Below, one piece after another: positions 4,084 through 60,932 of a stretch of 64,000 bases of DNA. The notes under the pieces were generated by a model. It had not been told where the DNA came from, did not search any database, and saw nothing but the letters and a program-made list of their open reading frames with translations. Position numbers and translations under genes: made by a program. How positions within the stretch are numbered: the stretch's first letter is position 1; each line of letters begins with the position of its first letter. The DNA comes from a virus. The DNA is taken from the IMG/VR virus record IMGVR_UViG_3300033064_001806, positions 1 to 64,000 of that record; one strand, written 5' to 3'.

Positions 4084-4536
4084 ATGAGATACGTGTATGT
4101 AGAAAACGGTATAGTTGCAAGTGAAAATCGTTATTTACCTATGAATTGGAATAATATATCTAATTTTAATTCATTGGATGCCGATTCATTGAAGCAATTT
4201 GGGTGGTATCCATACCGATTTGTTGGAGCAACAATACCAAGTGGTTATACAGTTGATAGTTCTTATTATGAAATTACTGATGATGAAGTACTTGAAATTC
4301 AAACTGCAAGACCTTTAACAGATGAAGAAAATCAAACTATAATTGAGTCACAATGGAATAATATAAGATCAAGACGAAATATTGAATTAAATGAAAGTGA
4401 TTGGACACACATTTCAGATTCACCATTAACTGCTGAAAAAAAAGAAGAATGGCAAATATATCGTCAAGAATTAAGAGACATAACTAAGCAATCTAACCCA
4501 TTTTCAGTAGAATGGCCAACTCCACCGGATGCATAA
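4084..4536 (+). CDS. Tail fibre assembly chaperone-like protein
   Basis: C-terminal IRSRRN..L.ESDWT....PL....W..YRQELRDI..Q..P....WP.PP signature. Confidence 0.8.
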   Translation: MRYVYVENGIVASENRYLPMNWNNISNFNSLDADSLKQFGWYPYRFVGATIPSGYTVDSSYYEITDDEVLEIQTARPLTDEENQTIIESQWNNIRSRRNIELNESDWTHISDSPLTAEKKEEWQIYRQELRDITKQSNPFSVEWPTPPDA

Positions 4537-6817
4537 AGTGAAAAATAAAGTATTACAACTAATAAAAGAAATGAATCTTGCTATCTTCAATGAAAATGAT
4601 TTGGTAGATAAGCAGATTATTGTTTTATATCCAGGTACTTTTAATCCAATGGCTTTGCACCATAAAGAAGAATATGATAGATTGTGCCGTAGATTTGGTT
4701 CAGATAGTGTGTATATTGTTACCGATGATATACAAGACGCTATTAGAAAACCACTTACGTTTGCAGAAAAAAACGCTATAATGAAGCGTCATAATGTAAA
4801 GAATGTTATTAAAACAACAAATCCTTATAACCCACTTGAATTATTAGAAGACTTCGATTCAACACATACGGTAGTTATATACGCAGTTGGAAAAGATAAT
4901 ATCGGTAAATTAAATGAATTCAAGCGGTTAACTAAGTATAATAAGGCTTCTAATTTACCTTATAAAGATATTCAAAATCCTTATTTATATTATGTAATTA
5001 CAAATCATGTTGTTTATAATATACCCAGCTTTGGACAAATGAATCAAGAAAATATTCAAAAAGCGTTGGGTGATAAAACTGCTAAACTAACAGAATTAAA
5101 ATCTCGTTTTATTTCTATTTTTGGTTGGTTTGATGCTCAGATTTTTAATACAGTTGTTGCAAGAATGAATGTAAAACGCGGTGAAATGATTGAAGTAAAA
5201 AAGAAAAAGAAAGGCGAGTTAAGACCACTTCACATGATAACAAAAAAGTTTTGGGATAAAGTATTTGAATCTGTTATAACAGAAGAAATAATAGCTTATC
5301 ACAGAAGTTCAAAAAATCTTCATAAGTTTGATATATCAAATGTTAGTGTTGATAGTAATAGACAAAGATATGGATATGGGCTTTATTTTTCTGATAATAT
5401 ACCACATAATCAGTACGGTGATTACTTATATAAAGTAAAACTTTTTAAAGATAAAAAAGAATATGTTTTAATAGACACACAGAATCCAGTTGAAGAAGAT
5501 ATAGTTAATAAAATTGTAGAATCAATTAAGGGGTATGGTAAAAATTCTGATGAAGTTGTTAAGTTTGCTTATAGTGGTTGGTTATTTTACAAAACTTTAT
5601 CAAGAATTTTAGGTGGTGATAAATACGCTTCTTTATTTTTATTTAATAATGGCGTTGATGGTTTAAAAAATAGGATAAGTAATAATTGGAATGATTATAT
5701 ATTATTTAATGATGATTCTATAACTATTGAAGATATTAAATATGACAAAGTATTTGAATCTGTTATAACAGAAGAAGTAGAACAAATAAATGAAGTAGCA
5801 ACATTACCGACTGGTTTATTGAAAGAAATAGAACCAGTTGCCATAGAACTTTTTACGGAAATTGCTGATTTAATACGATTAGATTCGAGTTTTAATGGAT
5901 TTAAGCGTATTTTAGTTTCTAAAACCGAATCTGGACTTGAAAATCAACAATATATTACAACAATTGTAAACCGTTGGATTAAAAACGAAGACTATGTTAA
6001 ACAATATGGTAATGAATTTTTTAAGAGTATTAAGTTACAATCTGTTGAAATTGAAATTGAAGGTGGATTTGCTGCCAAATTTCCTGAAATAACAAAAGTT
6101 GTACAGTATTGTTTTAAAAATGGTAAAGATGTAGAAAATGCAGGATTCTCTTTGGAAATAGAACATTTACTTGATCCAGATTTTGATTCAGAATATGAAT
6201 TAAATAATAAAATAAATTATACAAAATTTAATTCTGAGTTGACACAATTTTCTACCTTTAGTGATGAGTTTGCCGGCGGTGCTGCATTAGGTTCTTCTAC
6301 TAACTTTTTAGATAAAGCACGATTTATAATATATTTCACATTTGAATTTATTCCATTCTTTATAAAGATACAACTTGTAAAACGTGGTACAATAGAAACT
6401 ACAGTTGATACTATAATACAAGAATTTGTTAAAAAAGTATTTTTACCTACTATTGCACATGAGTTGATACATTATGTACAAAGAGTAAAAGAATTTTCTA
6501 ATTCTCAAACACTTCATGGTGCATCATATAATCGTTTACCGAAAGATGATCCAAATTTTTGGAAAACATATTTGTCTGATACTATGGAAATTGGTGCTCA
6601 TGCAGAAGAATTTGTAGAACAAATGAGATCGAATTTTCCAATGGAAACTGATAAATCAATATTGAAAATGTTACAATACGATGAAATACCACTCGGTGCA
6701 TCAGACGCACTAAAAAAATATTACGATGCGTTTTTCAAGGAAATGGGTAATAGTCCAAATGATCCAGTTAAGAAAAGATTTATAAAAACAGTTTATCAAA
6801 TCATAGATAAAAGTTAA
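4529..6817 (+). CDS. Polyvalent protein: degenerate HIGH-type nucleotidyltransferase, ART-like domain and zincin metallopeptidase
   Basis: LYPGTFNPMALHH; AYHRS...F.....YGYGLYFSD; TIAHELIHYVQ...Y....EIGAHA. Confidence 0.65.
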   Translation: MHKVKNKVLQLIKEMNLAIFNENDLVDKQIIVLYPGTFNPMALHHKEEYDRLCRRFGSDSVYIVTDDIQDAIRKPLTFAEKNAIMKRHNVKNVIKTTNPYNPLELLEDFDSTHTVVIYAVGKDNIGKLNEFKRLTKYNKASNLPYKDIQNPYLYYVITNHVVYNIPSFGQMNQENIQKALGDKTAKLTELKSRFISIFGWFDAQIFNTVVARMNVKRGEMIEVKKKKKGELRPLHMITKKFWDKVFESVITEEIIAYHRSSKNLHKFDISNVSVDSNRQRYGYGLYFSDNIPHNQYGDYLYKVKLFKDKKEYVLIDTQNPVEEDIVNKIVESIKGYGKNSDEVVKFAYSGWLFYKTLSRILGGDKYASLFLFNNGVDGLKNRISNNWNDYILFNDDSITIEDIKYDKVFESVITEEVEQINEVATLPTGLLKEIEPVAIELFTEIADLIRLDSSFNGFKRILVSKTESGLENQQYITTIVNRWIKNEDYVKQYGNEFFKSIKLQSVEIEIEGGFAAKFPEITKVVQYCFKNGKDVENAGFSLEIEHLLDPDFDSEYELNNKINYTKFNSELTQFSTFSDEFAGGAALGSSTNFLDKARFIIYFTFEFIPFFIKIQLVKRGTIETTVDTIIQEFVKKVFLPTIAHELIHYVQRVKEFSNSQTLHGASYNRLPKDDPNFWKTYLSDTMEIGAHAEEFVEQMRSNFPMETDKSILKMLQYDEIPLGASDALKKYYDAFFKEMGNSPNDPVKKRFIKTVYQIIDKS
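5258..5776 (+). repeat. Perfect 30-bp direct repeat (5258-5287 and 5747-5776) flanking the ART domain
   Basis: aaagtatttgaatctgttataacagaagaa occurs twice, 489 bp (163 codons) apart; encodes KVFESVITEE. Confidence 0.95.
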
Positions 6818-6839
6818 TAAAGTAATAAAAGGTTATGTT

Positions 6840-7481
6840 ATGGAAATAAAAATTGAGAATATACAAGATGTTAAAAAACTTCTTGCAGGTGAACACGATA
6901 GTCAGAATAAAGTTCAAATCGGTTATGTGGGTGAACCATTAGAAGATACAGAAACAAGAAAAGTTGGTGATAAATGGTTTGATTCTGATGGAAATGAATG
7001 GGAACAAAAGAATGGATATAAAGTAAAACTTGGAAAACAATGGCAACAAGAATTACATCAGTATTTAACTACATTCAAAAATTGTCCAAAAGAAACTTGT
7101 ACTTGTTCAATGCCAAAGCGATTAGATGAAAAGATGAGAAATATACATGGAATGTGTTTTGACTGTGTAATTGACATGGAACACAAACTTCGCTTAGAAG
7201 GTAAGTGGGATGAATATGAAAACAGAAAAGTAAAAGAAAATGCTATTGCTTGGTTAGCGGAAGCAGAAAGAGATAAAAATGTAGTAGCAGAAGAATTGTC
7301 TAAAGTAGATTTTGCTAATTCTTTCGGTGATTCTGAAAAATGGAATGTTCCAATAAGTAAAGATGAATTATTAGAAAAAATAGAAAAGGAATTTGAAGAG
7401 TTTAGAAAAAACTTTATTGCAAAGTTGGAAAATGGAGAACAGAATGAAACAGTTAATAGTAGAGCGAGCAGTACCAACTAA
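6840..7481 (+). CDS. Hypothetical protein with Cys cluster (possible Zn finger)
   Basis: CPKETCTC...CFDC; intact ORF with phage-like codon usage. Confidence 0.6.
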   Translation: MEIKIENIQDVKKLLAGEHDSQNKVQIGYVGEPLEDTETRKVGDKWFDSDGNEWEQKNGYKVKLGKQWQQELHQYLTTFKNCPKETCTCSMPKRLDEKMRNIHGMCFDCVIDMEHKLRLEGKWDEYENRKVKENAIAWLAEAERDKNVVAEELSKVDFANSFGDSEKWNVPISKDELLEKIEKEFEEFRKNFIAKLENGEQNETVNSRASSTN

Positions 7482-8019
7482 CAAGAAATTATACTCTAGT
7501 ATAAAATCTCGCGTTAAAAAAAGATTTAAGGTATGGCCAAGTGCATATGCTTCCGCTGCATTAGTAAAAGCATACAAAAAAGCAGGTGGAGGATATAGAA
7601 CTGTTAAGGAAACTATTCAAAATCCGCAATATACATTAGAAGGATTCTCTACTGATTGTAGTGATTCAATTGTTGAATTGCATTTCAAACTCGGTGACGG
7701 TACAAAAGAAAATTTAACAGAAGCAAAATACCGTGGAAGAAAAGTTTCACTTGGTAAACCATTCAGAACTCCAGATGGACCAAAAAAGTTTTCTGTTTAT
7801 GTAAAAAAACCAAACGGAAATATAGTAAAAGTAAACTTTGGACATAAAGGAAAAGGCGGTGAAAAAACAATGCGTATAAAGAAAAGTAACCCTACTCGTA
7901 GAAAAGCGTTTCGTTCAAGGCATAACTGCGATAATCCTGGAAAAAGATGGAAAGCAAGATACTGGTCATGTAGATTCGGTTGGCCTAGCTCTGGTAAAGG
8001 TGCAATAGATAAAACATAA
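7444..8019 (+). CDS. Basic two-module protein, probable head-internal protein (DUF6321-like C-terminus)
   Basis: WPSAYAS..LVKAYK..GG.YR module; LTEA site followed by KKFSVYVK...VKVNFG...FRSRHNC...ARYWSC; start 7432 or 7444. Confidence 0.6.
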   Translation: MKQLIVERAVPTNKKLYSSIKSRVKKRFKVWPSAYASAALVKAYKKAGGGYRTVKETIQNPQYTLEGFSTDCSDSIVELHFKLGDGTKENLTEAKYRGRKVSLGKPFRTPDGPKKFSVYVKKPNGNIVKVNFGHKGKGGEKTMRIKKSNPTRRKAFRSRHNCDNPGKRWKARYWSCRFGWPSSGKGAIDKT

Positions 8020-8022
8020 GTT

Positions 8023-8793
8023 ATGAACAAAGAAACATTCAAATCAATTTTACAACCAGAAATGGGTGCAAATAATGTTGCAACAACTGATGATGCTGCA
8101 CGGATATTATCGGACGCTTATGATTACGCAAACATTGCAAATACTTGTACTTTTTTCGGTTCTATGGTTGCAAGTGGTGATAAAGCAACATTAAAAGATT
8201 TGATAAAAAATGGATTTGACTTAAATAGAGCAACTGGTGGTGATGAGGGTTATATATTAATTGCAACTGGCTTTTGTTTGTATTGGATAAAATCTACGTT
8301 CACACAATTACCACCAATGCCACCAACAACAGTTCCACTCGCTGGAACAATGGTTTTATTTCCAGGAAATCCAAAAGATTTAGAAAAGGAAATTAAATTA
8401 GCTTTTAGTCAAGGTGATTTTAATCTTTTTGTTGATTCTTTATACTCTGCTCTCGTTGGTCATCAGACTACAATAGTAGGTACTTACAATGGACTTGTTC
8501 CATCTGTTCCTGCTCCTATAGCAGTAACATTACCTTGGTTGGGCTTACTGAGTGTACCACCACCGTCTGGAAGTGGGTTATCTGGTAGTGCAGCGATTGA
8601 GGATGAACTGAAAAGTAAAGCAGGTGAGAAACTTGAAGACTTAAAAAAATTGGTTGAGGATGCAGTTAAAAAAGCAGCAGCGGGTGGAACTAAAGAAACA
8701 CTAAAAGGAACATTAGATGATGTAATTGGAAAGGTTGGTGAGTTAGGAAAATCAGTTGCAACAAATTCTATAACAGAACCAACAGTTAAATAA
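8023..8793 (+). CDS. Hypothetical protein, possibly virion-associated
   Basis: Intact ORF with Pro-rich loops (LPPMPP, VPAP..LPW). Confidence 0.5.
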   Translation: MNKETFKSILQPEMGANNVATTDDAARILSDAYDYANIANTCTFFGSMVASGDKATLKDLIKNGFDLNRATGGDEGYILIATGFCLYWIKSTFTQLPPMPPTTVPLAGTMVLFPGNPKDLEKEIKLAFSQGDFNLFVDSLYSALVGHQTTIVGTYNGLVPSVPAPIAVTLPWLGLLSVPPPSGSGLSGSAAIEDELKSKAGEKLEDLKKLVEDAVKKAAAGGTKETLKGTLDDVIGKVGELGKSVATNSITEPTVK

Positions 8794-8850
8794 CCACCAA
8801 TTGAAACTCTTGGACCAAATAACTTTTCTGGATAAAGCATATTTATCTGT

Positions 8851-9183
8851 ATGAACAACACACAGAAAAATATAACAAAGAAAATAATACGTGAGTATGT
8901 GATAAACTATTTAATGGAAGGTAAGAAACCAAAAGGTGGACTTTCCAAATGGTTTAAAGAAAAATGGATTGATATTTCACGTAAAAGCAAAAAAGGTGGG
9001 CATCCACCATGTGGTGATTCCGCTGGAAGTAAGTCAAGAAAAGGTGGAAAGAGAGCATATCCAAAATGTGTACCTGCGAGTAAAGCAACATCAATGACTG
9101 CAAAACAAAAGAAAAGTGCAGTAACACGTAAAAGAAAATATGGTGCAACTAAACGTGGAAAAGCAAAAATGGTTTCAACTTAA
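8851..9183 (+). CDS. Small basic protein (DUF5872-like)
   Basis: GGL.KWFKEKW.DI...PCG...YPKCVP..KA motif after a helical leader ending LMEG. Confidence 0.55.
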   Translation: MNNTQKNITKKIIREYVINYLMEGKKPKGGLSKWFKEKWIDISRKSKKGGHPPCGDSAGSKSRKGGKRAYPKCVPASKATSMTAKQKKSAVTRKRKYGATKRGKAKMVST

Positions 9184-9197
9184 ACGGAAGGTTAGTT

Positions 9198-9530: not shown

Positions 9531-9533
9531 GTT

Positions 9534-13486: not shown

Positions 13487-14329
13487 ATGAAAAAAATTAA
13501 ACACTCAAAGTTTAAAAATACTGCTATGTTATTTGAATTGCTAACGCGTCAAATAACATCTGATATTATTTCCTCGAATGAGTCCGTAGCAATACAGATT
13601 CTAAAAAAGTATTTTAACAAAAATACCGAACTTATAAAAGAATATAAGTTGTACAAGACTTTATGCGATGAGCGTCTTAAATCCGATACAAAAGCAGTTA
13701 TGCTTATTGAAGCGGTATTAAAAGCAAGACGTGGGTTAAATAGAAAAAAACTAAATGAAGAAAAATATCAACTTATTAAAACTATAAAAGAAAACTTTGA
13801 TATAGATTCATTTTTCCAAACAAAAGTTCAAAACTATAAACTACTTGCTTCTGTTTATAAAATATTTGAAAATAATGAAATAGATAATCCAGTTGAGTTT
13901 ACTAAATCACGTATAACAATTTTAGAAACAATTACTTCTAATAGTAAGAAAACAATTGTTAATGAAGAATTTTCTATTAAAAACGAACCAAAAGAAATTA
14001 GATTATTAGCGTATGCATATTTAGTTGAGAAGTTTAATAGAAAATACGGTGATTTAAGTGAATCACAAAAAACTCTTTTAAGAGAATACATTGGAAATAT
14101 TAGTAACACTAACAATTTAAAATCTCTTATACAATCAGAAGCGGTAAGTGTAAAAAATACTTTTAAGAAAAATATACATAGAGTTAGTGATAAATCTTTA
14201 AAAATAAAATTAATAGAAGTCATTAATCTTTTAGATGATTATTCAACAATTAAGAAAGTAGAAGAAAACCATATATCTGCACTTCTTCGTTATTACAGTT
14301 TAATAGACGATTTATCATGGAGTAAATAA
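13487..14329 (+). CDS. Head-morphogenesis region protein (possible prohead core protein)
   Basis: Helical Lys-rich ORF directly after the portal. Confidence 0.55.
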   Translation: MKKIKHSKFKNTAMLFELLTRQITSDIISSNESVAIQILKKYFNKNTELIKEYKLYKTLCDERLKSDTKAVMLIEAVLKARRGLNRKKLNEEKYQLIKTIKENFDIDSFFQTKVQNYKLLASVYKIFENNEIDNPVEFTKSRITILETITSNSKKTIVNEEFSIKNEPKEIRLLAYAYLVEKFNRKYGDLSESQKTLLREYIGNISNTNNLKSLIQSEAVSVKNTFKKNIHRVSDKSLKIKLIEVINLLDDYSTIKKVEENHISALLRYYSLIDDLSWSK

Positions 14330-14653: not shown

Positions 14654-15337
14654 ATGGATGTAAACGCTTTCATACATAAAATAAAAGAATCCGAAGAATT
14701 CAAACAGTTTCAAGAAGAACTTGATGAAATGAGTGTAACTAGTATGGTCGCTGGATATGAAACTCCAAAGGCATTTGCTGCTAATGAAGATGATTTTGAA
14801 GAACATAATAAAGAAACTGCGGAAGTTTACGGATATAAACTTGTTCCAAAGACTAAAAAAAGAAATTATGAATCTGTATATAAACAAACTATGCGTTTAT
14901 TAAATGAAGCATCTGTTTCGGTATTTGCATCCGATGGTGATGAATTCAAAGATGGATTTGTAAAAGATGAAGACACTTGGAGAAAATACGTATCAACAAA
15001 AGCAGAAGCTTCTGGATATAAAATAGTTAATGAAAAGAATGTTTTTGGTAAAACTCCAGAAAAATTAAAATCTGTAAAAGAATATTTAAGTGAAGCATCA
15101 TATAAAGAATTCCGTAAAGATGAAACAAGAACTACAAATAGAAAAATAAATGATTCTATTAAACGCATAAATAGAATTATGTATGAAGTTGAGAAAGTAG
15201 TAGAACATGCTTCACGATTAAAGACTGAAATGGCAGTTGATCAAAGAACACTTTGGGGGGAATCACGTAATCGTCTTGTAAAAATATCAGAACGAATTAA
15301 TAGAATTAGTAAAAAAATACACGAATTAGGTGCTTAA
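14654..15337 (+). CDS. Probable prohead core/internal protein
   Basis: IKES, LDEM, LNEA and LSEA protease-type sites; C-terminal coiled coil. Confidence 0.55.
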   Translation: MDVNAFIHKIKESEEFKQFQEELDEMSVTSMVAGYETPKAFAANEDDFEEHNKETAEVYGYKLVPKTKKRNYESVYKQTMRLLNEASVSVFASDGDEFKDGFVKDEDTWRKYVSTKAEASGYKIVNEKNVFGKTPEKLKSVKEYLSEASYKEFRKDETRTTNRKINDSIKRINRIMYEVEKVVEHASRLKTEMAVDQRTLWGESRNRLVKISERINRISKKIHELGA

Positions 15338-15338
15338 A

Positions 15339-16001
15339 ATGAAACAATTACTCGTAGATACTATACTATTTAGTGCAAGTCCAAGAATGATTGCAGAATC
15401 TGAAAAGAAAAACGATGGTAAAGTTATAGTTTCGGGTGTTTTACAAAGAGCAGAAGTAAAAAATCAAAATGGTAGAGTTTACCCAAAAAAGATTTTAATG
15501 CGTGAAGTGAAAAAATATGCTGAAACAAATATTAAAGAAAATAGAGCGTTGGGTGAGTTGGATCATCCAGATTCTTCTGTTATTAATTTAAGAAATGTTT
15601 CTCATAATGTATTGAGTGTAGATTGGAAAGGCAATGATGTAATTGGTACAGTAGAGATACTTCCAACCCCATCTGGCAATATTCTAAAACAACTGCTTGG
15701 TGCAGGAATTCGCCTTGGTATTTCTTCTCGTGGTTTAGGTTCGGTTGAAGAAATAAGTGAAAATACAGTTGAAGTACAAGAGGACTTTGAATTAATAGGT
15801 TGGGACTTTGTATCGAATCCATCCACACAAGGTGCATTCATGTATGACGATGGTCATCAGAATGAAGGTTTAATTAGAGAGGGTGTTAGTTTAGAAACTA
15901 TTTCTAAGATTGATCCTAAAATTCAACGTATTCATAATAACATTACAAATATTATTTGTGAAATTGGAAATATTTGTGAATGTATATTTGGAGATAAATG
16001 A
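15339..16001 (+). CDS. Prohead protease (T4 gp21-like)
   Basis: NQNGRVYP, ALGELDHP, VSH, GISSRGLGS, DFVSNPS. Confidence 0.96.
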   Translation: MKQLLVDTILFSASPRMIAESEKKNDGKVIVSGVLQRAEVKNQNGRVYPKKILMREVKKYAETNIKENRALGELDHPDSSVINLRNVSHNVLSVDWKGNDVIGTVEILPTPSGNILKQLLGAGIRLGISSRGLGSVEEISENTVEVQEDFELIGWDFVSNPSTQGAFMYDDGHQNEGLIREGVSLETISKIDPKIQRIHNNITNIICEIGNICECIFGDK

Positions 16002-16868: not shown

Positions 16869-17930
16869 ATGACCTCGCATTATATCGAAGAAATTATTCG
16901 TGAAGAAATACGGAAAATCATTGAAGATATGGAAAGAAATTCTTTTTTATCCGAGGAAGACGAGGAAGCGCCCGCAGCAGAGGAAACTCCAAAGGAAGAA
17001 CCAAAAGAGGAAACTCCAAAGGAAGAACCAAAAGAGGAAGAGAAAAAATCAGCGGATGATACTGCTTCGAGTGAAGAAGGTGGTGATGAAAAAAAAGAAG
17101 AAGAACCACCAGCAGAAGAAGAATCACCAACAGGTTTAAAATCAGTTGAATTGACAAATCCAGTTGAAGTTCAAAACTTAAAAAAGAAATCAACGAGTAT
17201 TGGTCCAGAAACTCAAGGTAAACTTCTATCATTTGAGTACGAAGAAATTTTAGATGTTTACGATCAGGCTGTTCAAAAAGCAGAAGATGAAGACTCAAAA
17301 AAGAAAATTGGTTTAATAACTAAAAAAATCCAAAACATTTCAATTCTAAAACATAGTATAATTAGTAAAAAACCATTGGACAGGGAAACAACAATGGCTT
17401 TAGATTATTACTACAAACACACTTCTGATATAAATGAATTAGTTCGCTCTGATATTCAATTAGCAACTAAAAAGCAAATTGAAAAGCAATTAAGACTTGG
17501 CAAACCAAAAGAAAAAGAAAGTAAAAGAACTCCAGTATTTACTGATGCCATACAAACGTTCACCGTTAGCAGTTTAGACTTTGCATTCAGAGAAGAAATG
17601 CAACGTTTAGATTTTAATTTAGTTGTATATCGTTCAATAGAAACACCAAATGTTTTACAGCATTTTTTGGATGCGGGTACATGGATTGATAAGGGCTATG
17701 TAACTACTTCCCTAAATCCACTTATAGTTGAAAGTTTGAATAAGAAACGATTACCACTTTTTGAAATGTTAATTCCAGCAGGTTCATCGGTACTCACATT
17801 ACCATGTAAAGTAAATGATTACTGCCATGAAACAGAAGTAACCTTACCGAGAAATTGTAAATTTACAATCCACGGATATAATGAAACACGAAACATATAC
17901 AAAGTATTAGTGGAGCAAAACAATGCCTGA
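16869..17930 (+). CDS. ADP-ribosyltransferase (R-S-E class, VIP2/Alt-like) with acidic leader
   Basis: LVVYR, KGYVTTS and HETEVTLPRN motifs near the C-terminus. Confidence 0.8.
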   Translation: MTSHYIEEIIREEIRKIIEDMERNSFLSEEDEEAPAAEETPKEEPKEETPKEEPKEEEKKSADDTASSEEGGDEKKEEEPPAEEESPTGLKSVELTNPVEVQNLKKKSTSIGPETQGKLLSFEYEEILDVYDQAVQKAEDEDSKKKIGLITKKIQNISILKHSIISKKPLDRETTMALDYYYKHTSDINELVRSDIQLATKKQIEKQLRLGKPKEKESKRTPVFTDAIQTFTVSSLDFAFREEMQRLDFNLVVYRSIETPNVLQHFLDAGTWIDKGYVTTSLNPLIVESLNKKRLPLFEMLIPAGSSVLTLPCKVNDYCHETEVTLPRNCKFTIHGYNETRNIYKVLVEQNNA

Positions 17931-18051: not shown

Positions 18052-18188
18052 AAAATTAACAATACACCATACTTATTTATGACATAATACCCTATGAAGA
18101 ACCAATATTATCTTCAACTTATAGGGGCATATACTATTTTTATATTAATTAGACGTTAACAATAACGCTAGAATAGTTGGAGATTATA

Positions 18189-19220
18189 ATGAATGATTTA
18201 CTGAAAGAAGCAATTGCAGATGCTAAAGCAGTTAAAGAAGTAGCACTCGCAAACGCAAAACTCGCTTTGGAAGAAGCGTTCACACCTCGTTTACAGTCTA
18301 TGCTTTCTAAGAAACTTTCTGAAGAAGCAGAAGCCGAAGAAACAGAAGAACCTGTTGAAGAATACGGTTTCTACAATGAAGCAGAAGAAGAAGAGAAAGA
18401 ACCAGCAATGGAAGAGGGCGATGAAGAAACTGAAGAACCAGCAATGGAAGAAGCAGAAGATGAAGAAGAACCAGCAATGGAAGAAGGTGAAGATGAAGAA
18501 GAACCAATGGACGAAGATTTGATGGAAATAATCCGTCAACTTGAAGAAGATTTAGTATCGTCTGACATTGGTGGTGGTGACAATAAAAAACCAGCTCCAA
18601 AAGCATCATCTACATCTACTCAAATGAAAGGAGAAAAATTGGTTCAATTAGTTGAAGAAGAAGGTGAAGAAGATGACGAAGAAGTAGCAGAAATCCAAGA
18701 GATTTTACGTGCTCTTCGTGAAGAAGAAGAAACAGAAGAACCAATGGAAGAAGCAGAAGAAGAAGAAGTTGACATCAAAGAAGTTTTACGTGCTCTTCGT
18801 GAAGAAGATGAAGAAGAAGCTCCTGTTGAGGAAGGCGAAGAAGAATCAGAAGAAGAACCAGTTGCAGAATCAAGACTTCGTGAAGCATATGCTGTTATTA
18901 AGTTCTTACGTTCAAAAATCAACGAAGTTAATCTTTTGAATTCAAAGTTATTGTTCTCTAACAAATTGTTTAGAAGTAACTCTTTAACCGAAGCTCAAAA
19001 AATGACTGTTATTGAAAACTTTGATCGTGCAACAACTCTCCGTGAAGTCAAACTTGTGTATACAACTTTGGGTGAAGCATTGAAAGGTGCAACTAAAACT
19101 CGTCGAATTAAAGAATCGTTTGCATCTAAACCAACTGCAAGCACACGTCCTTCAAGTAATATTTTGAATGAAGGCGATGTTATGGCAAGCCGTTTACGCA
19201 AATTAGCAGGTTTAAAATAA
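18189..19220 (+). CDS. Prohead scaffolding protein (T4 gp22-like)
   Basis: LLKEAIADAKAVK..A.ANAK.ALEEAF; very acidic middle; C-terminal RL.KLAGL; directly before the MCP. Confidence 0.85.
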   Translation: MNDLLKEAIADAKAVKEVALANAKLALEEAFTPRLQSMLSKKLSEEAEAEETEEPVEEYGFYNEAEEEEKEPAMEEGDEETEEPAMEEAEDEEEPAMEEGEDEEEPMDEDLMEIIRQLEEDLVSSDIGGGDNKKPAPKASSTSTQMKGEKLVQLVEEEGEEDDEEVAEIQEILRALREEEETEEPMEEAEEEEVDIKEVLRALREEDEEEAPVEEGEEESEEEPVAESRLREAYAVIKFLRSKINEVNLLNSKLLFSNKLFRSNSLTEAQKMTVIENFDRATTLREVKLVYTTLGEALKGATKTRRIKESFASKPTASTRPSSNILNEGDVMASRLRKLAGLK

Positions 19221-19241: not shown

Positions 19242-20879
19242 ATGAATGTACAATCTTTATTAAATGCTTCTGGAAGTCCCCACAAGCAACTTATCAAAGA
19301 AAACCGTCAAATAGTTAACAAATGGTCAAAGACAGGTTTACTTGATAACTTAAACAACGACTATGAAAAGAACTCTATTGCAGTTCTTTTAGAAAACCAA
19401 GCAAAACAACTTATAGATGAATCAAACCGTACAGGTACAGCAGCTGGCTCAGAAGAATGGGCAGGTGTTGCACTTCCATTGGTTCGCAGAATTTTCTCTG
19501 AAATTGCTGCGAAAGATTTTGTGTCTGTTCAACCAATGAACTTACCTTCTGGTCTTGTATTCTTCTTAGATTTCAAATATGGTACAGCACAACCTGGATT
19601 CACAGCCGCTCAAGGTAAAGATACACAGACTGACTCTGTATTTGGTGTAACAGGTGCAGAAGCAAAAGACGCTGATGCTTCAGGTGGTCTTTATGGTGCA
19701 GGTCGTTTTGGTTATTCAATCAATGAAGCAAATATCAGTTTAGCAAAAGCAGCTACATTATCTGCAACAGAATTCGTAACTGGTTCTGTAACACACGCAA
19801 CACCATCATTATTCCAACACGATACAGAATTCAAAGACGCTTACTCTGGATCTCTTGTAGCTGGCGGTATTATGACAATTACAATTAATTCAAGTTCTCT
19901 TGTAAATGAAGATTTTGACGCAGTTCGTGCTTTCAAAATTAGTGGTTCAACTATCTTCAGCTATTTTCCACAATACACATTCACATCAAACAATAATTCA
20001 ACAATTACATTCGTTGTTTCTGCATCAGCAGCTCCTGCAACAATCGGTATTGCATACGAAAAGCAACCTACAGCAACAACTCGTGGTGACTTTGAAGATG
20101 GTTTAGCAGGTTCAAGTCTTGATATTCCAGAAATCAACTTAGAATTACGTTCAGAATCCATTGTTGCTAAAACACGTAAGTTGAAAGCAGTATGGACACC
20201 TGAATTCGCACAAGATTTGAATGCATATCACTCAATCGATGCAGAAGCTGAATTAACTTCTATGTTGTCTGAGTATATCTCTCAAGAAATTGACTTAGAA
20301 ATTCTTGATATGTTGATTAAGAATGCACAAACAACAGAAAGATGGTCAGCACGTATCGGTCGGGCTTATAACTCTGCTACAAGTGCATTTGCAGATTATT
20401 CAACAGCACAAGGTGCAGCATCTGCATATAACCAACAAACTTGGTTCCAAACATTAGGTACAAAGATTCAAAAAGTATCCAACATCATTCATCAGAAAAC
20501 ATTACGTGGTGGTGCAAACTTCTTAGTATGTTCTCCACAAGTTGCTACAATTCTTGAATCTATGCCTGGCTATGCAGTTGATGGCGAAGGTATGAAATTC
20601 GCAATGGGTGTTCAAAAAGTTGGTCAATTAAATGGCCGTATCACAGTTTACAAGAACCCATATATGTTAGAAAACCAAATGTTAGTTGGTTTCCGTGGAA
20701 CACAATTCCTCGAAACTGGCGCGGTTTATGCACCATATATTCCACTTGTAATGACACCATTGGTTTACGATCCAACTAACTTCACACCAAGAAAAGGTGT
20801 GTTGACACGCTATGCGAAGAAAATTGTTCGTCCTGAATTCTACGGTTTGATTCAAATCGAGTCTTTAGGTGACATCTAG
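19242..20879 (+). CDS. Major capsid protein (T4 gp23-like)
   Basis: LLENQ, LPLVRR, VSVQPMNLPSGLVF, AKTRKLKA.WT.E.AQDL.A.H, YAPYIPL, F.P.KG..TRY. Confidence 0.97.
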   Translation: MNVQSLLNASGSPHKQLIKENRQIVNKWSKTGLLDNLNNDYEKNSIAVLLENQAKQLIDESNRTGTAAGSEEWAGVALPLVRRIFSEIAAKDFVSVQPMNLPSGLVFFLDFKYGTAQPGFTAAQGKDTQTDSVFGVTGAEAKDADASGGLYGAGRFGYSINEANISLAKAATLSATEFVTGSVTHATPSLFQHDTEFKDAYSGSLVAGGIMTITINSSSLVNEDFDAVRAFKISGSTIFSYFPQYTFTSNNNSTITFVVSASAAPATIGIAYEKQPTATTRGDFEDGLAGSSLDIPEINLELRSESIVAKTRKLKAVWTPEFAQDLNAYHSIDAEAELTSMLSEYISQEIDLEILDMLIKNAQTTERWSARIGRAYNSATSAFADYSTAQGAASAYNQQTWFQTLGTKIQKVSNIIHQKTLRGGANFLVCSPQVATILESMPGYAVDGEGMKFAMGVQKVGQLNGRITVYKNPYMLENQMLVGFRGTQFLETGAVYAPYIPLVMTPLVYDPTNFTPRKGVLTRYAKKIVRPEFYGLIQIESLGDI

Positions 20880-21003: not shown

Positions 21004-22008
21004 ATGGGAAATAGTATGAAAACGATTAATGGGAGAAAAAAACTGTTTGAAGATGATGAAATTTTTGGTACAACAGACACACTCGGTTTAAGTAAAGTAC
21101 CAGTAGATGCAGCTAAAGCGGCTTATAAAGGTGGAAAAAATGATGGTGATATGGAAGATGATAAGATACCATCGAAGAAAGTTTCCGTTGCTGCTGGAAA
21201 ATTAAAACCATCTCAAAAAGAAGTAGTTCCACAGAAAGCAGTTGAATTTGCATTTTCTGCAATCATGAAAATTAATCCTATGCCAAGTGGTCCAGGTGGA
21301 GATTTACAAGCAATTATTTCAAATGATAATTATATCATGGATGGACACCACCGTTGGGCTGCAACTTTCTTAGTTGATCCATCTGCTACTCTTGATGCAA
21401 CACAGATTGACCTTCCAGGTGGAGCGCTGGTTACAGCATTGAATGTTGTAACTAAGGGATTGGGTAGAGGGGGAAATACAGGTAAAGGTGATATATCTAA
21501 ATTTGGTGGTAAACCAATCGAAGACGCTATTGATGCAGTTTTAGCTAATGGATATTGGGCAGAGAAAGATCCAGAAAAATGTAAAGCAGCGTTTGAAGAA
21601 TGGGGTGGTGGTTCTGTGGAAGAAGGAAAGAAAAAAATGGTTGCTAATGCAGCTAAAATGCCAAAAGCAATTCCTGGTTGGGCTCCAAATCGTGTTGATA
21701 TGCCAGTTATCAATGCACCCGAAGTTGGTAAGATTGCAACAGCTATCGCAGCAGGTGTTATTGATCTCAAAACTCCTTATGGTGATGACGTTAAATCAAA
21801 GATGGAATCTTATTATAAAATGAGAAGAGGACAAAAACCATTATCAGAAAACATAATGAAAAAACTCCGCCAATATAATACGGTAAATCAAAAGAGACTT
21901 CAAGAATCATATTTGAAAAAAGTTAGAAAACAAAAATTACAAGAAAAACTTATTAGTGCATTGCGCCCATTGGTTAAAGAAGCAATTAGAACAATGATAA
22001 ATAAATAA
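21004..22008 (+). CDS. ParB/Sulfiredoxin-N domain protein, probable head cargo
   Basis: LKPSQ...IISNDNYIMDGHHRWAA; LFE, LSE, LQE and VKE sites flank the domain. Confidence 0.75.
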   Translation: MGNSMKTINGRKKLFEDDEIFGTTDTLGLSKVPVDAAKAAYKGGKNDGDMEDDKIPSKKVSVAAGKLKPSQKEVVPQKAVEFAFSAIMKINPMPSGPGGDLQAIISNDNYIMDGHHRWAATFLVDPSATLDATQIDLPGGALVTALNVVTKGLGRGGNTGKGDISKFGGKPIEDAIDAVLANGYWAEKDPEKCKAAFEEWGGGSVEEGKKKMVANAAKMPKAIPGWAPNRVDMPVINAPEVGKIATAIAAGVIDLKTPYGDDVKSKMESYYKMRRGQKPLSENIMKKLRQYNTVNQKRLQESYLKKVRKQKLQEKLISALRPLVKEAIRTMINK

Positions 22009-23402: not shown

Positions 23403-23414
23403 TTGCAATCAAAA

Positions 23415-23951
23415 ATGAATAAAAATACCATAAAATTAAAGAAACTCCTCGATGAAATAAAAGTCGAGGAGTCTTCTAATTTAGTTAAGGAATTTTCGTT
23501 TGACCCATTAACAGTTACCGCAGTTGCACTTTCTGCTCCTGATGTTGCTAGAGTTACTGCTGACGGTATAGATTTTATTTCAAAAGAAATTGGTATGGGT
23601 GATAAAACTAAAGCAGCAGAATTACTGAGGACTGGTGCAGATAAATTGCATCAATTTTATATAAATGATATTATGAAAATGTTGAACGTCGGTGTACCTG
23701 GCTTTGATAAAATTCCGATGGATAAAAAACAAAAAATAGCTAATTCCGTATTTGCCGTTATTATAACTTCAATTGGATTTCATATAGCAATGGATGCTCC
23801 AGGTTTATTTGCTGCATTCATGCGATTAAAGCATATTTGGTGGTATAGTGATATTCGAGAAAAAATAAAAAATATTTTATATTCTATTAAGTTTGGAAAC
23901 CTCGGTGCTTTCTTTAAAAAAGAACTTGACACCATACTTGCAAACGAGTAA
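23415..23951 (+). CDS. Hypothetical membrane-type protein with IKLKKLLDE leader
   Basis: Leader plus VKE site; hydrophobic segment VFAVIITSIGFHIA. Confidence 0.5.
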   Translation: MNKNTIKLKKLLDEIKVEESSNLVKEFSFDPLTVTAVALSAPDVARVTADGIDFISKEIGMGDKTKAAELLRTGADKLHQFYINDIMKMLNVGVPGFDKIPMDKKQKIANSVFAVIITSIGFHIAMDAPGLFAAFMRLKHIWWYSDIREKIKNILYSIKFGNLGAFFKKELDTILANE

Positions 23952-49964: not shown

Positions 49965-50282
49965 ATGAAAAAAGAAGAACTTGTAGAAGTAATTACACAG
50001 AGAGTACTTGAAACACTCAGCGAACGAATTTCATTATTGGAATCGAGTGGATTTGATATTATATTCAGTTCTCTTAGAAAAGAGTTGAATAAAATAACTA
50101 TACTTCCAGATAATGTAATTGACGCAAGCCAGTATAAAGAACACGAATTAGTCGATGCTTTGAAGAAAATTGGTTATGAGTATAAAAAACCAATGGGTAA
50201 TAAACTACATTTTTTTAATAAAAAAACAAGTATAAGTCTTTATCTAATTCAGAAAACTTTGAAAATAACACTTATGCCATAA
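49965..50282 (+). CDS. Hypothetical protein with helical leader (probable head cargo)
   Basis: MKKEELVEVI...LSE...LLES leader. Confidence 0.55.
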   Translation: MKKEELVEVITQRVLETLSERISLLESSGFDIIFSSLRKELNKITILPDNVIDASQYKEHELVDALKKIGYEYKKPMGNKLHFFNKKTSISLYLIQKTLKITLMP

Positions 50283-50292: not shown

Positions 50293-51162
50293 ATGAAAAA
50301 AACACAGACTAAAAAAGTACGTATTATTAAAGAAGATGTTTCTTCTGCAAATATAAGCCCCATAAGTTACATGGTGTTTATAGATATTTCTAGTTATCTA
50401 TCCAAAGGTCGTGGTTTATTAAATTCTATGTTTTCAAGTAAAGCAACTGAATCTATTACAAAATGGTTTGGTAGAGTAAAAGAAGACGAAACTTATAAGG
50501 AAAATGAAGAGGCATTCAAAGCCATTTCTTCAAGATTTATGGGCAATCCTATTTTGAAAAAACTTTATAGTTCAATAGACAAACTTAAAACCATTTCAAC
50601 TGGCGAAACAGATCAAAGTGAAAGAGATAAAGATATTGAAAACTTATTGGGTAAAATAAGTTTATTTATTAAAAATAGACTTACAAAAAAAGACAGGGAA
50701 CTTATTGGTAAAATTTCAACTGTAGTTAATTCGATTGGTAATAATATTTCTTCTACCATAAAATCAGACTTAGAAGTAATGACAAAAGCAGAAGCACCTG
50801 CACCAATCCAGTCAAAATCTAATGAAGAAAAACCAAAAGTAGAAGGAAAAGTAAATGAAAGACTAAAAAATAAGTTGCGTAAGAAAATCAAAGAAATAAT
50901 TAGAACTCAGATGCTAACCCCAAAATTAACTAAAGAAACTCCATTGTATGACATTGCAGCCCTTATTAGGAAAGATTGGAAGAATGTTTATCTCGGTGCT
51001 AAACCTTATCTTGATGCAATGAGTAAGCTCACTAATATATCAGATAGACATGGTGCAGATGATGCTAAAACTATTGTTCTTTATTTTCTTTCTAATGCTT
51101 CTGCATGGAGAGGAGATACAGCAAAGGCAGTAAAGGCTCATCTTAAATCATTAGTCAAGTAA
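50293..51162 (+). CDS. Hypothetical two-module protein (probable head cargo)
   Basis: IIKE and VNE sites, LRKKIKEII helix; distinct C-terminal helical domain after TKE. Confidence 0.55.
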   Translation: MKKTQTKKVRIIKEDVSSANISPISYMVFIDISSYLSKGRGLLNSMFSSKATESITKWFGRVKEDETYKENEEAFKAISSRFMGNPILKKLYSSIDKLKTISTGETDQSERDKDIENLLGKISLFIKNRLTKKDRELIGKISTVVNSIGNNISSTIKSDLEVMTKAEAPAPIQSKSNEEKPKVEGKVNERLKNKLRKKIKEIIRTQMLTPKLTKETPLYDIAALIRKDWKNVYLGAKPYLDAMSKLTNISDRHGADDAKTIVLYFLSNASAWRGDTAKAVKAHLKSLVK

Positions 51163-51251: not shown

Positions 51252-51887
51252 ATGTACGTGATAAAGTTAATAGATATATTAAAAGAAATGGGGATTGATA
51301 AAGGTGCGTTCCATGGATTTGGAATGAAACCACAAGATATGCGTGTTGATAGTTGCAATGTGGAATGGACAAGTCCAGACCAAGATACTGGTTGCCCTGC
51401 GTTTTCTGATTCAACTAAAATTACAGAAGAAGATATTACCAAGGCAATCGAATATCTAAATACGGAAAAACTAAAAACATTAATAGCATATTCAAGGGGT
51501 GGTGCAATATTATTACAAGCGTTATCTATGGGTGCTAAGAAACCATCAACAGTTTATTTAGTGGCTCCTGCTTGGAATAGACAATGGCCTACTGTGAGTT
51601 TAACTGGTTCTGAAGTAAACGGAAGTGGTGCAATAATTCATGGTGGTAGTGATAATGTAGTTCCATTAAAACATTCTGTAATATTAGCAAAGGCAAGTGG
51701 TATGCCATTATATGTGTTCCTTGGAATGAATCATGTTAGCATATTAAAAAACAAAGATAATCCAACTTCTGGAATACTATTGAAAAATTTAGAAAATGCT
51801 ATGGAGGTTTTGCCAGATTGGGGTGCAAGTGGAAAAGCAACGGAAGAAGAGTTAAAAATGCAAGAAGAGTTTATAAATAATATTTGA
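51252..51887 (+). CDS. Alpha/beta hydrolase with IKLIDILKE leader
   Basis: AYSRGG nucleophile elbow, IIHG..D.VVP Asp, GMNH His. Confidence 0.8.
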   Translation: MYVIKLIDILKEMGIDKGAFHGFGMKPQDMRVDSCNVEWTSPDQDTGCPAFSDSTKITEEDITKAIEYLNTEKLKTLIAYSRGGAILLQALSMGAKKPSTVYLVAPAWNRQWPTVSLTGSEVNGSGAIIHGGSDNVVPLKHSVILAKASGMPLYVFLGMNHVSILKNKDNPTSGILLKNLENAMEVLPDWGASGKATEEELKMQEEFINNI

Positions 51888-52795
51888 GAAAAATTATCAG
51901 TAAATTAAGTGTATTATTAAATGAAGTTAGAGACTTCAGAAAAAATGCAATAGATAATGCTAAATTTCGCCTTAGAGAAACATTCATTAATGAAGAAGGT
52001 GAAGACAAATCACAAGATGAAATAAAGGCAATTCTGAAAAAAGATTACTCTTCTTTTGTTAAAGAGTTGGGTGATAATATAAAAGATGAAAAATTTCTAA
52101 ACGCTATAAAATCACTTTCTAACACATCACCTCTTAAAGTATCAGGAATGTCTCCCGTAGTTACAGATTTACAACCAACACAGAATGAAGTTATAATGGA
52201 TAAATCTTTAAGTTATCCACTAACAGATGTACCAAGTGCCGAACAATACTTAAAAGGTGGAGTGGTTGCCGTTGCAGGTAAATCAATTATAACATCAGGT
52301 GGTGGTAAGTATGTAATAGATGGACATCACAGATGGTCGCAAGTGTTGTGTATCAATCCAGACGCTAAAATTAAAGCATTAGATTTAACAGACATTAAAA
52401 AACCGATTGAAGCATTAAAAGCAACACAGATTGGAATAGCTGCACAAACAGGTGCAGTTCCAACCGCAGCAGGTGGTGGAGTAAACCTTTTTACAGTTGG
52501 TGAGGGTGAGTTAAAAAAATATGTTATTGATAAAATAAAAGAACCAGTTGTTGCTGTATTTGAAAAATATGGTAAAGGTGATACACCAGAAACAATTGCA
52601 GATTATATTTGGGAAAATGTTCAAATACTTAAAAAACAATCTCCCCCAGTAGCAGGTGCACCTAAACGTGATGTGATGCCACAAACAGATGATGCACCAC
52701 AATGGGTTGACAATACTTTCAATGTAGAACAAATACCAGAAGAATTAACTAATCGATTCAAAGAACTATTACGGTATAACAACAGAAATAAATAA
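51884..52795 (+). CDS. ParB/Srx-N domain protein (paralog of 21004..22008)
   Basis: LQPTQ.EV, YVIDGHHRWS, P.R..MP; KLSVLLNE leader; TTG start. Confidence 0.75.
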   Translation: MRKIISKLSVLLNEVRDFRKNAIDNAKFRLRETFINEEGEDKSQDEIKAILKKDYSSFVKELGDNIKDEKFLNAIKSLSNTSPLKVSGMSPVVTDLQPTQNEVIMDKSLSYPLTDVPSAEQYLKGGVVAVAGKSIITSGGGKYVIDGHHRWSQVLCINPDAKIKALDLTDIKKPIEALKATQIGIAAQTGAVPTAAGGGVNLFTVGEGELKKYVIDKIKEPVVAVFEKYGKGDTPETIADYIWENVQILKKQSPPVAGAPKRDVMPQTDDAPQWVDNTFNVEQIPEELTNRFKELLRYNNRNK

Positions 52796-59329: not shown

Positions 59330-59701
59330 ATGGAGAATATAGTGAGAGATTTAGTTAATGAAGGCAGAGAACTGCAAAATAGAGTAACAAGTAAATTTTC
59401 AAAGATGGTAAAAGAAGCCGCTCAAGAAGAAGTTTCTTCACCAATAAGAAATCTTGTGAATAAAATGGAAAAATTTACAGATAATAATCAACATACCGAT
59501 ACATTGAGTGAATTGGCAAAACATTTAAAATCAAAAAAACATCAACTTTTGTTGCAAGCAATTGATGATATTCATGAAGTAGAAGGTTCTCTACCAAGTG
59601 AAATTAGTAAATATAGAGATCGTATATACAATGAATTGACAGCACTCGCTAAAAAAAGTATGAATGCTAAAGAGTATTCTGCTATTATGGGTTCGATGTA
59701 A
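59330..59701 (+). CDS. Hypothetical helical protein (paralog of 60579..60932)
   Basis: LVNEG/VKEA leader; EL.K....KK....L.A...I...E shared with the paralog. Confidence 0.6.
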   Translation: MENIVRDLVNEGRELQNRVTSKFSKMVKEAAQEEVSSPIRNLVNKMEKFTDNNQHTDTLSELAKHLKSKKHQLLLQAIDDIHEVEGSLPSEISKYRDRIYNELTALAKKSMNAKEYSAIMGSM

Positions 59702-59753
59702 ATTAAATAGTTAAAGGTGTTATAGTTCTTTGGAATAATGAAGGAGTATAGTT

Positions 59754-60026
59754 ATGGATATTACATCATTTTTTATGGGTATATGTGCAGTTACAGTTTT
59801 AACGGCAGTTGCAGTTGTAGTTGTGGGTATGTTCAGAATTAGTAAATTAAACAAAGAACTAAATAATTTAGTTAGAAACCAAGATACGATGGATAGAATT
59901 ATTGTTGATAATGAAAGAGAAATCAGAAGAACAATAGATTCCAGAATTGACAGTTTCGGTTCAAAGATTGAAAAAGAAATAAAATTCATACATGAAAGAA
60001 TTGATGGATTGAATAAAGTAAAATAA
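59754..60026 (+). CDS. Small single-TM coiled-coil protein
   Basis: Hydrophobic N-terminus FFMGICAVTVLTAVAVVVVGMF; AAGGAG SD. Confidence 0.7.
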   Translation: MDITSFFMGICAVTVLTAVAVVVVGMFRISKLNKELNNLVRNQDTMDRIIVDNEREIRRTIDSRIDSFGSKIEKEIKFIHERIDGLNKVK

Positions 60027-60092
60027 ATAATAATTTTTAAAATGAATTCATAGAACTATAACACACATTTTTTATAAGTTAGGAGACTTGTT

Positions 60093-60272
60093 ATGAATAA
60101 ACAAGAATTATTTGAACAGATTTCAAATTTGTTCAATGAGTTTGTGGCAGCACACAACTCAACAAAAAAGAAAGACGCTGCAATTGCTCGTAAAGCAGCA
60201 GGTGGAATTAAGAAATTAGTTACACCTTATAACCAAGCGTCTGTGACGGAAGCTAAGGTAGCAAAGCAATAA
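60093..60272 (+). CDS. Histone H1-like (Hc1-family) small basic protein; not in ORF track
   Basis: MNKQELFEQISNLFNEFVAAHNSTKKKDAAIARKAAGGIKKLVTPYNQASVTEAKVAKQ; K.A..ARKA...IKKL.......S pattern; AGGAG SD. Confidence 0.65.
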   Translation: MNKQELFEQISNLFNEFVAAHNSTKKKDAAIARKAAGGIKKLVTPYNQASVTEAKVAKQ

Positions 60273-60302
60273 AAAAGGGTGATGGAAACATCACCCTTTT
60301 TT
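60271..60302 (+). terminator. Intrinsic, probably bidirectional terminator
   Basis: AAAAAAGGGTGATG-gaaa-CATCACCCTTTTTT. Confidence 0.9.
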
Positions 60303-60369
60303 ATTTATCCCATATTTATATTTACAATAGTATTTTTCACATCAAGGCAAATATAAATGGGATGGCGTA

Positions 60370-60576
60370 ATGTCAGTAAAAAAACCAAGAGAATACAGAA
60401 GTGTATTGGCAAAAATATGTTTAGTACTTGGGACATTCTTCAATCCTCTTGGATTCGATGCGGCTTTTGCTTTAATGATGAAATTTACAGGGAGCTACAT
60501 ACTTACCGATATTATATTTTATTCGGTAGCTCTATTATTTTTTGGACTTTATTTTATCTTATCTCGTAGGAGTTAA
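60370..60576 (+). CDS. Small membrane protein
   Basis: Two hydrophobic helices around FFNPLGFDA. Confidence 0.6.
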   Translation: MSVKKPREYRSVLAKICLVLGTFFNPLGFDAAFALMMKFTGSYILTDIIFYSVALLFFGLYFILSRRS

Positions 60577-60578
60577 AA

Positions 60579-60932
60579 ATGAACATATCATCAAGAAAAC
60601 AACTGTTAGCAGAAGCAGGTGATGTATTAAAAAAGATTCGTGAAGAAGTTGAAGGCCTCGATAAAAAAGTAGAAACTTCTGTTAAAAAAATAATTAAGTT
60701 CTGTGAAGAAGATAAAGACATGGTATCAGGACTTCTTGAACTTGCAAAATTAGTTGGTGATAAAAAATACCAAAAAGTATTAGAAGCGGTAAAAGAAATT
60801 GTAAAAGCAGAAGAAGGCTCACACTATTTCATCGATCAATATATAACAGAAATTAAAAGTATATTATTATCTGCTGCAAAAGAACAATTTAGCTCACAAG
60901 AGTTTGGTGTAATATATTCTGCAATCGGCTAA
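60579..60932 (+). CDS. Hypothetical helical protein (paralog of 59330..59701)
   Basis: LLAEA/IREE leader; AGGAG SD. Confidence 0.6.
   Translation: MNISSRKQLLAEAGDVLKKIREEVEGLDKKVETSVKKIIKFCEEDKDMVSGLLELAKLVGDKKYQKVLEAVKEIVKAEEGSHYFIDQYITEIKSILLSAAKEQFSSQEFGVIYSAIG

Follow-up and report, generated by a model that had tools for sequence, protein, structure and literature searches.

Near-invariant N-terminal tags and protease-motif joints in a Far-T4 phage lineage suggest an expanded T4-style capsid-targeting system

Tagged genes and joints in the window

We analysed 64,000 nucleotides (hereafter the window) from the virus record IMGVR_UViG_3300033064_001806, in which short, near-invariant N-terminal peptides ("tags") head otherwise unrelated proteins and a prohead-protease-type motif forms the joints between modules of a polyprotein encoded at 4529-6817. 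The window covers the first 64 kb of a contig of 110,363 bp, whose structural half it represents; the contig comes from a T4-like myovirus of the distant ("Far-T4") kind. Its long open reading frames (ORFs) are all on the plus strand, G+C content is 30-36%, and PHROGs matches place TerL at 9920-11512 and the portal at 11570-13435 and also identify the protease and the major head protein listed further below. The major capsid protein (MCP) is 70% identical to that of Microcystis phage Mel-JY01, 56% to those of Flavobacterium immuto phages and 37% to that of Rhodothermus phage RM378, and gene order in the window is that of Mel-JY01. Within the "Far-T4" space, RM378 is the member that has been cultured (PMC4360716). 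The tagged genes and joints on which the argument turns are as follows (a slash marks the predicted cut position).

4529..6817, + strand: tagged polyprotein made up of a tag, an NMNAT-like module, an ADP-ribosyltransferase (ART) cassette and a zincin-like module
5255..5287, + strand: joint 1 of the polyprotein, residues 243-253, ending VITE/E
5285..5773, + strand: module B, an ART-PolyVal-like ADP-ribosyltransferase cassette, residues 253-415
5744..5776, + strand: joint 2, residues 406-416, an identical copy of joint 1
5828..6814, + strand: module C, zincin-like, with an HExxH motif read in the sequence and a SprT-like match of E 0.026 only
23403..23951, + strand: tag 1 with site LLDE/I at residue 18; one hydrophobic helix; directly behind a late-type unit
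50293..51162, + strand: N-terminal IIKE/D, corresponding to the internal junction of a Mel-JY01 fusion protein
51252..51887, + strand: tag 1 with ILKE/M at residue 12; candidate alpha/beta hydrolase
51884..52795, + strand: tag 1 with LLNE/V at residue 14; ParB/Srx-like DGHHRW domain

N-terminal tags in the source genome

Tag 1 is a 10-residue N-terminal peptide, MIKLKDLLxE with variants, carried by nine proteins that the genome encodes, of which three fall within the window. The strict tag pattern finds seven matches in 35,345 residues, all inside the first 15 residues of their proteins (23403, 51252 and 51884 in the window; 67638, 78239, 98926 and 106666 outside it), and the paralogues 107673 and 108359 bring the total to nine. 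Paralogy among the tag-1 proteins is limited to two pairs; they are otherwise unrelated. A search for internal tag-like sites with a position-specific scoring matrix (PSSM) gave 17 matches against 10 in shuffled sequence, with the whole excess at N-termini. The conserved positions show synonymous codon variation, and an explanation of the tags as a DNA motif was therefore rejected. Homologues of 51884 carry a hydrophobic-hydrophobic-x-Glu (h-h-x-E) site within their first 30 residues in 103 of 120 cases, mostly ending at residue 10-11, and many of these are canonical tag 1. Beyond the window, gene 67638 (67638-68267) joins tag 1 to an S-adenosylmethionine (SAM) lyase (PF23780, 1e-10). The genome thus encodes a tagged SAM lyase along with the SAM synthetase MetK (77088-78257), and the gene that follows MetK, 78239, also bears tag 1. 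Pfam and PHROGs searches with full-length candidates were mostly empty, and no paper was found in an open-access literature search for the tag strings.

N-terminal tags across IMG/VR

Tag 1 was sought in IMG/VR with a degenerate DNA pattern that covered its first eight residues; among ORFs of at least 40 residues, at least 107 matched, with at least 82 distinct cargos. Among the matches listed, 99 of 107 have almost no open frame upstream; Glu10, which lies outside the search pattern, is present in 98 of 107 (codons GAA 80, GAG 18), and position 9 is filled by 16 different residues. Past the tag, mean column identity is 8%. The pattern for a second tag was derived from gene 109723 of the same genome together with a free-standing ART. 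Tag 2 comprises 17 residues ending in LNE and produced 84 IMG/VR matches with 57 distinct cargos; 73 of 75 are N-terminal, and [YF]LNE, again outside the pattern, occurs in 69 of 75. No match to tag 2 was obtained by tblastn against cultured phage records, a query this short probably falling below the sensitivity of the search.

Together, the two tags head more than 130 unrelated cargos in IMG/VR. Most of this cargo is unannotated; among the annotated proteins are Zeta-toxin-like kinases, NUDIX, PAP2, lysozyme, a 2H/Acb1-like protein and, in one tag-1 cargo that matches PF18818, a PolyVal zincin. Many tag-2 cargos are ART-PolyVal ADP-ribosyltransferases (PF18760, 1e-15 to 9e-10). One 296-kb IMG/VR contig (L083) has five consecutive genes at 3771-10874, each headed by tag 1 and then by a common second block, IFVPRRMEDR, and this array is a tandem family of tagged paralogues.

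The polyprotein and its exchangeable modules

The polyprotein lies 3 kb upstream of TerL and holds the equivalent place in Mel-JY01 and in the relative G003. Its own tag, 11-14 residues ending LIKE/M, is kept in all 37 homologues found, and the NMNAT-like module that follows occupies residues 15-252 (CTP_transf_like, E 0.015). Joints 1 and 2 are an exact 10-residue repeat, identical in DNA over ~31 nt, and they bracket module B, which has no direct Pfam match and aligns with the tag-2 cargos matching PF18760 at 91.9% by hhalign (E 7e-7). The earlier note had listed ARTs and a zincin among the cargo domains, and in this gene a PolyVal-like ART and an HExxH module are both present.

Comparison among homologues places the gain and loss of modules at the joints. 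The 163-residue ART cassette is missing in 21 homologues (for example L153, L158 and L162), and their alignments stop at residues 253-255 and resume at 405. In L150/L228 the cassette stands as a gene of its own, headed by tag 2 and then VITE/E and ending exactly where joint 2 would start; in other relatives joint 1 is followed by a ligase-like or a zinc-finger module. The homologues P0245 and P0249, which have no zincin, keep the first joint. An AlphaFold2 (AF2) model of the whole polyprotein had a mean pLDDT of 61, too weak alone to define domains; both joints fall in segments with pLDDT<50 (joint 1 in 216-284, joint 2 in 399-421), which is consistent with a linker position and not significant. 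A comparable junction involves the 50293 module, which in Mel-JY01 is fused to a SAM-lyase module at IINE/S, the counterpart of the N-terminal IIKE/D here.

Prohead protease and head-core proteins

The enzyme that would act on such sites is encoded in the head module, together with the following head proteins.

13487..14329, + strand: head-core protein beside the portal, the richest in [ILV]xE beyond shuffles (z 3.35)
15330..16001, + strand: gp21-type prohead protease (phrog_207, 4e-55)
18177..19220, + strand: scaffold, with 24 [ILV]xE sites against 15.8 in shuffles
19242..20879, + strand: major capsid protein, predicted maturation site LIDE/S

Homologues of the protease (55-69% identity) were detected on 10 of 15 tag-1 and six of nine tag-2 contigs, including all three complete records with terminal repeats. 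A 207-kb contig rated complete (G002) lacks the protease and was considered as a counter-example; because portal and MCP are also missing although the sheath is present (52% identical), it is a fragment and was set aside.

Protease N-termini of this clade end LLVD, LIVD or LLIE (LLVD/T here), mirroring the self-cleaved nonapeptide of T4 gp21; the N-termini of T4 gp24 and gp21 end LRE and LIE. The gp21 nonapeptide fills the active site, and gp21 cuts off its own nine N-terminal residues (PMC9958956). Complex prediction with the protease and a tagged N-terminus scored 0.01, speaking neither for nor against binding. The predicted MCP site LIDE/S aligns with the T4 gp23 cleavage site LTE/A, and Mel-JY01 has LISE/A. 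The motif of the tags and joints, as read from sequence, matches both this predicted maturation site and the T4 gp21 rule.

Relative to Mel-JY01, four head-core proteins keep 33 of 54 [ILV]xE sites, and a further 49 orthologues keep 89 of 271 (p 2e-4), a contrast not seen with control motifs. The N-terminal FE/LL site of 13487 is kept in Mel-JY01 and G003, and four of the five scaffold sites singled out in the earlier note are conserved in Mel-JY01. A homologue of ribosomal protein S21 (16622-16849) also sits in the head module, between a DUF3008 protein and the ART of 16869; its Mel-JY01 counterpart is annotated as RpsU.

How far the motif extends

The earlier note had proposed a modular leader-linker-cargo architecture, with repeated [ILV]xE sites at domain boundaries. 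In the window the motif occurs 375 times in 20,391 residues (1.84 per 100 residues, against 1.48 from composition). An excess over per-protein shuffles is confined to head-core proteins, namely 13487, the scaffold (z 2.6), 14654, the protease and 15998, and to 22110 (z 2.4). Enrichment in cargo is absent relative to shuffles (z 0.1 for 4529, -1.0 for 16869, -0.2 for 50293 and -0.8 for 51252), and the claim of enrichment at domain boundaries fails in its generic form because these proposed cargo proteins stay at shuffle level.

The N-terminus is different in this respect. Genome-wide, 27 of 173 hydrophobic-[LIV]-x-E sites end in the first 20 residues (p 2e-5), where ~11 are expected because that zone holds 6.4% of positions. 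Sites on UvsX, a pol-I-like exonuclease and 57434 show no conservation in relatives, and we take these as the chance fraction of the 27. All peptide strings quoted as leaders are present at their genes; six are N-terminal, whereas the 50293 string is internal (residue 195) and the 21004 string is a C-terminal tail (residue 320). The architecture thus stands for a subset of genes, where it is common to the whole phage lineage, and several of the listed leaders are at chance level. Relatives support candidate leaders in the window for 4529, 7393, 23403, 50293 (N-terminus only), 51252 and 51884; those of 8851 and 16869 are weakly supported, and no support was obtained for the leader of 49965, the C-terminal string of 21004 or the internal one of 50293.

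Other cargo in the window

Further candidate or listed cargo genes are the following.

7393..8019, + strand: very basic DUF5872 protein (net +35), N-terminal LIVE/R ahead of a conserved AVPT
8851..9183, + strand: DUF5872-like protein, basic (net +27), with IIRE/Y at the end of a tag-2-like N-terminus
16869..17930, + strand: R-S-ExE ADP-ribosyltransferase in the head module, with N-terminal helix, acidic linker and ART
21004..22008, + strand: ParB/Srx-like (DGHHRW) late protein, untagged; paralogue of the 51884 domain
49965..50282, + strand: listed in the earlier note; single-hydrophobic sites only, unconserved in Mel-JY01
59330..60932, + strand: small helical paralogues (59330-59701 and 60579-60932), h-h-x-E at residue 11/12

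Several of the proposed cargo assignments stand, those of 21004, 51884 and 51252 tentatively. The protein at 16869 is an R-S-E ART, with PF03496 over its cut-off (E 2.1e-9; 37.4 bits vs 23.4), homologues that also match PF03496, and the motifs YRS, TTS and ETE in the sequence. It sits between the protease and the scaffold, and its N-terminal helix is conserved, its N-terminal h-h-x-E only partially so. The ParB-like call for 21004 and 51884 agrees with the DGHHRW domain common to both, which is invariant in 37 sequences and has a weak ParBc_2 match (E 0.038). The AF2 model of 51884 (pLDDT 86.7) is poorly defined over residues 1-40 and confident from 41 on. Foldseek gave no clear match for it, the best being ParB-N (E 0.05), and VIA Z scores of 4.1-5.0 to SerK, sulfiredoxin, PadC and SbnI were tied with unrelated helical rows; ParB/Srx proteins are recurrent among these weak fold matches. 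The tentative alpha/beta hydrolase call for 51252 comes from weak profile evidence (Abhydrolase_1, E 1.2e-4, below cut-off) and from the ESM Atlas (0.95, with the ten best matches all in one clan).

The basic proteins 7393 and 8851 call to mind the internal proteins of T4, which are likewise basic, and the 7393 homologue in G003 has an N-terminal tag plus an internal tag-like site. The N-terminus of 60579-60932, SSRKQLLAE/A, resembles the front of P0175, a 392-residue ParB-like homologue, and may possibly represent a third tag type.

Promoter context

Two promoter-like motifs one base apart were recognized. An early-type motif, TTG-N19-TATATTTG (Bacteroidota -33/-7 style), precedes replication genes (916, 52864, 63678), and a late-type A-variant, ATATTTAT[AT], precedes structural genes (11533, 28458, 30996, 32985, 37452), among them those for portal, sheath, tube and tape measure. 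Eight of the nine tag-1 genes are in units headed by the late-type A-variant, and a late-type motif at 4042 lies ahead of 4529. The motifs suggest that the host belongs to the Bacteroidota and that a single base switches between early and late.

Microcystis is the recorded host of Mel-JY01, the nearest relative in culture; the relatives of Mel-JY01 and the promoters of the present contig point to Bacteroidota, and the record may merit rechecking. Two further observations concern regions away from the tagged genes. A 374-nt stretch after the tail tube gene (31525-31898) has no long ORF and no Rfam match, and Rfam gave no match anywhere in the window. A GroES/GroEL pair is encoded outside the window at contig positions 104668-106608, and the GroEL of G003 is 65% identical.

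Proposed mechanism and alternative explanations

The tags and joints are conserved, are used in a modular way and co-occur with a prohead protease. We consider it somewhat more probable than not that they belong to an expanded T4-style system of capsid targeting and maturation cleavage in this phage and its lineage. A short N-terminal tag would address an unrelated protein to the core of the assembling prohead, and a gp21-type protease would cut after the Glu of the h-h-x-E motif. With the same motif used as a joint between the modules of 4529, these modules could be freed separately. Cargo encoded in the window would then include two ADP-ribosyltransferases, ParB/Srx-like domains, a candidate alpha/beta hydrolase and the very basic proteins of the DUF5872 type, and cargo encoded outside it a SAM lyase; once loaded, such cargo would be injected from the capsid. 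More tentatively, Far-T4 phages in general may possess an "address label" system readable from sequence, with at least two near-invariant tags and cuttable joints by which any module could be plugged in as capsid cargo.

Several observations weigh against this interpretation. Core binding, cleavage, packaging and injection are steps that we infer. Cargo such as NUDIX, kinases and PAP2 would be compatible with cytoplasmic roles too. Position 10 is Asp rather than Glu in gene 98926 and its relative, few tags occur in the close relative Mel-JY01, among them proteins that begin MIKLKSLLQE, and the Mel-JY01 scaffold has an N-terminal Asn where the present phage has Glu. Internal motif enrichment was not found in the cargo proteins by per-protein shuffles, and the PSSM finds internal tag-like sites no more often than in shuffles. 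Three of the five strong sites in 4529 lie in low-confidence linkers of the AF2 model, which is not significant, and the same ART module in other polyvalent proteins has Gly-rich linkers without the motif. Tagged genes 78239, 109723, 93641 and 101686 are in early-type units, the early and late labels being themselves derived from gene content only.

The early-type units also speak for an unlikely alternative in which the tags are real and serve another purpose, as a docking peptide for a different conserved partner, a timed-degradation signal or a localisation signal, their likeness to the protease motif being coincidental or secondary. Many cargos look like ordinary enzymes, as would suit such a role. 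Yet the format of the tags equals that of the T4 capsid-targeting sequence (~10 residues, hydrophobic at -2, terminal Glu), the same motif recurs at the predicted MCP site and the protease N-terminus, most tag-1 genes are in late-type units, and the ART and ParB-like cargo corresponds to proteins whose packaging is known or predicted (PMC5512222).

We regard as improbable that tags and joints are mainly recombination linkers for moving cassettes without proteolysis. The DNA identity of the two 4529 joints over ~31 nt and the gain and loss of cassettes exactly there are what such linkers would produce, but tag residues are kept while their codons vary synonymously, and Glu10 is encoded by either GAA or GAG among the matches listed. 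The free-standing ART retains the upstream VITE/E and not the downstream joint, and a single invariant Glu would go unexplained.

Equally doubtful is that any processing of 4529 is carried out by its own zincin-like module instead of the prohead protease. Module C does contain HExxH, and autoprocessing by a metallopeptidase (MPTase) has been proposed for polyvalent proteins such as P1 DdrB (PMC5512222). The zincin assignment is weak (E 0.026), however, the motif at the joints is that of the prohead protease, and the zincin-less homologues P0245 and P0249 keep joint 1.

Chance is a very improbable source of the pattern as a whole: in an AT-rich, Lys/Glu/Ile-rich proteome [ILV]xE is frequent (one site per ~55 residues expected), most cargo proteins are unenriched, ~11 N-terminal matches are expected and replication proteins have unconserved ones, but the statistics of the tags, both here and in IMG/VR, and the indel breakpoints at joints refute it for tags and joints, and its reach is limited to 49965, the tail of 21004 and the internal string of 50293.

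If the tags are indeed loading and cleavage signals, they would provide a sequence handle on the proteins that uncultured phages inject with their DNA, a class rich in host-takeover and anti-defence enzymes that is otherwise found only by virion proteomics. Address labels would then list injected effectors from sequence alone, as signal peptides list secreted proteins, and dozens to hundreds of effector families might be listed in this way, including ARTs, ParB-like nucleases, SAM lyase, Acb1-like proteins, NUDIX and kinases. The T4 principle of targeting a few small internal proteins would then operate on a larger scale in an abundant lineage of aquatic phages, in a plug-and-play form whose modules are exchangeable and whose joints are cut by the protease. 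As tools, the tags could also be used to load foreign proteins into such capsids.

Comparison with known systems

The closest parallel is the T4 capsid-targeting sequence (CTS), an N-terminal peptide of ~10 residues (MKTYQEFIAE) that has Ile8 and Glu10, undergoes a single cut and brings foreign fused proteins into the capsid (PMC8442874). T4 packages internal proteins (IPs) and Alt (PMC9958956). Like the CTS of IPI-III and Alt, processed by gp21, tag 1 is an N-terminal peptide of about ten residues with a hydrophobic residue at position 8 and Glu at 10. As in T4, a tag is common to unrelated, fast-changing cargo, a gp21-family protease is present, and the cargo includes an ART, as does the packaged Alt. 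The likeness is one of format only (length and positions 8 and 10), ten residues being too few for a test of homology. Unlike the T4 CTS, the tag sequence differs and there are at least two tag classes, more than 130 distinct and more enzymatic cargos occur in IMG/VR instead of a handful, and the motif doubles as an inter-module joint; the present system is a prediction from sequence.

Multidomain proteins with ART, MPTase and ParB-like domains encoded beside late genes have been predicted to be packaged (Iyer et al. 2017; PMC5512222). The 4529 protein, whose modules show indels among relatives, resembles these polyvalent proteins in its several effector modules and its late or virion gene neighbourhood. 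It differs in that its modules are joined by a fixed peptide with a prohead-protease motif and preceded by a capsid-type tag, that the modules also occur singly behind tags, and that MPTase autoprocessing is not required.

In phiKZ and SPN3US, a protease related to that of T4 processes many head-internal proteins at a short Glu-ending motif (PMC5694885, PMC10052503). The propeptides of their ejection and inner-body proteins are long and, unlike here, are not known to form a shared tag of 10-17 residues. The cleavage context in these giant phages is small-x-Glu.

Phage P1 incorporates Dar anti-restriction proteins, including the ParB-like DdrB, into its head (PMC5512222). Loading there is hierarchical via DarA/Hdf, and no shared short N-terminal tag is known, unlike here. 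What is new in the present lineage is the combination of near-invariant tags across its members, a very large enzymatic cargo set and a protease motif that serves as an exchange joint.

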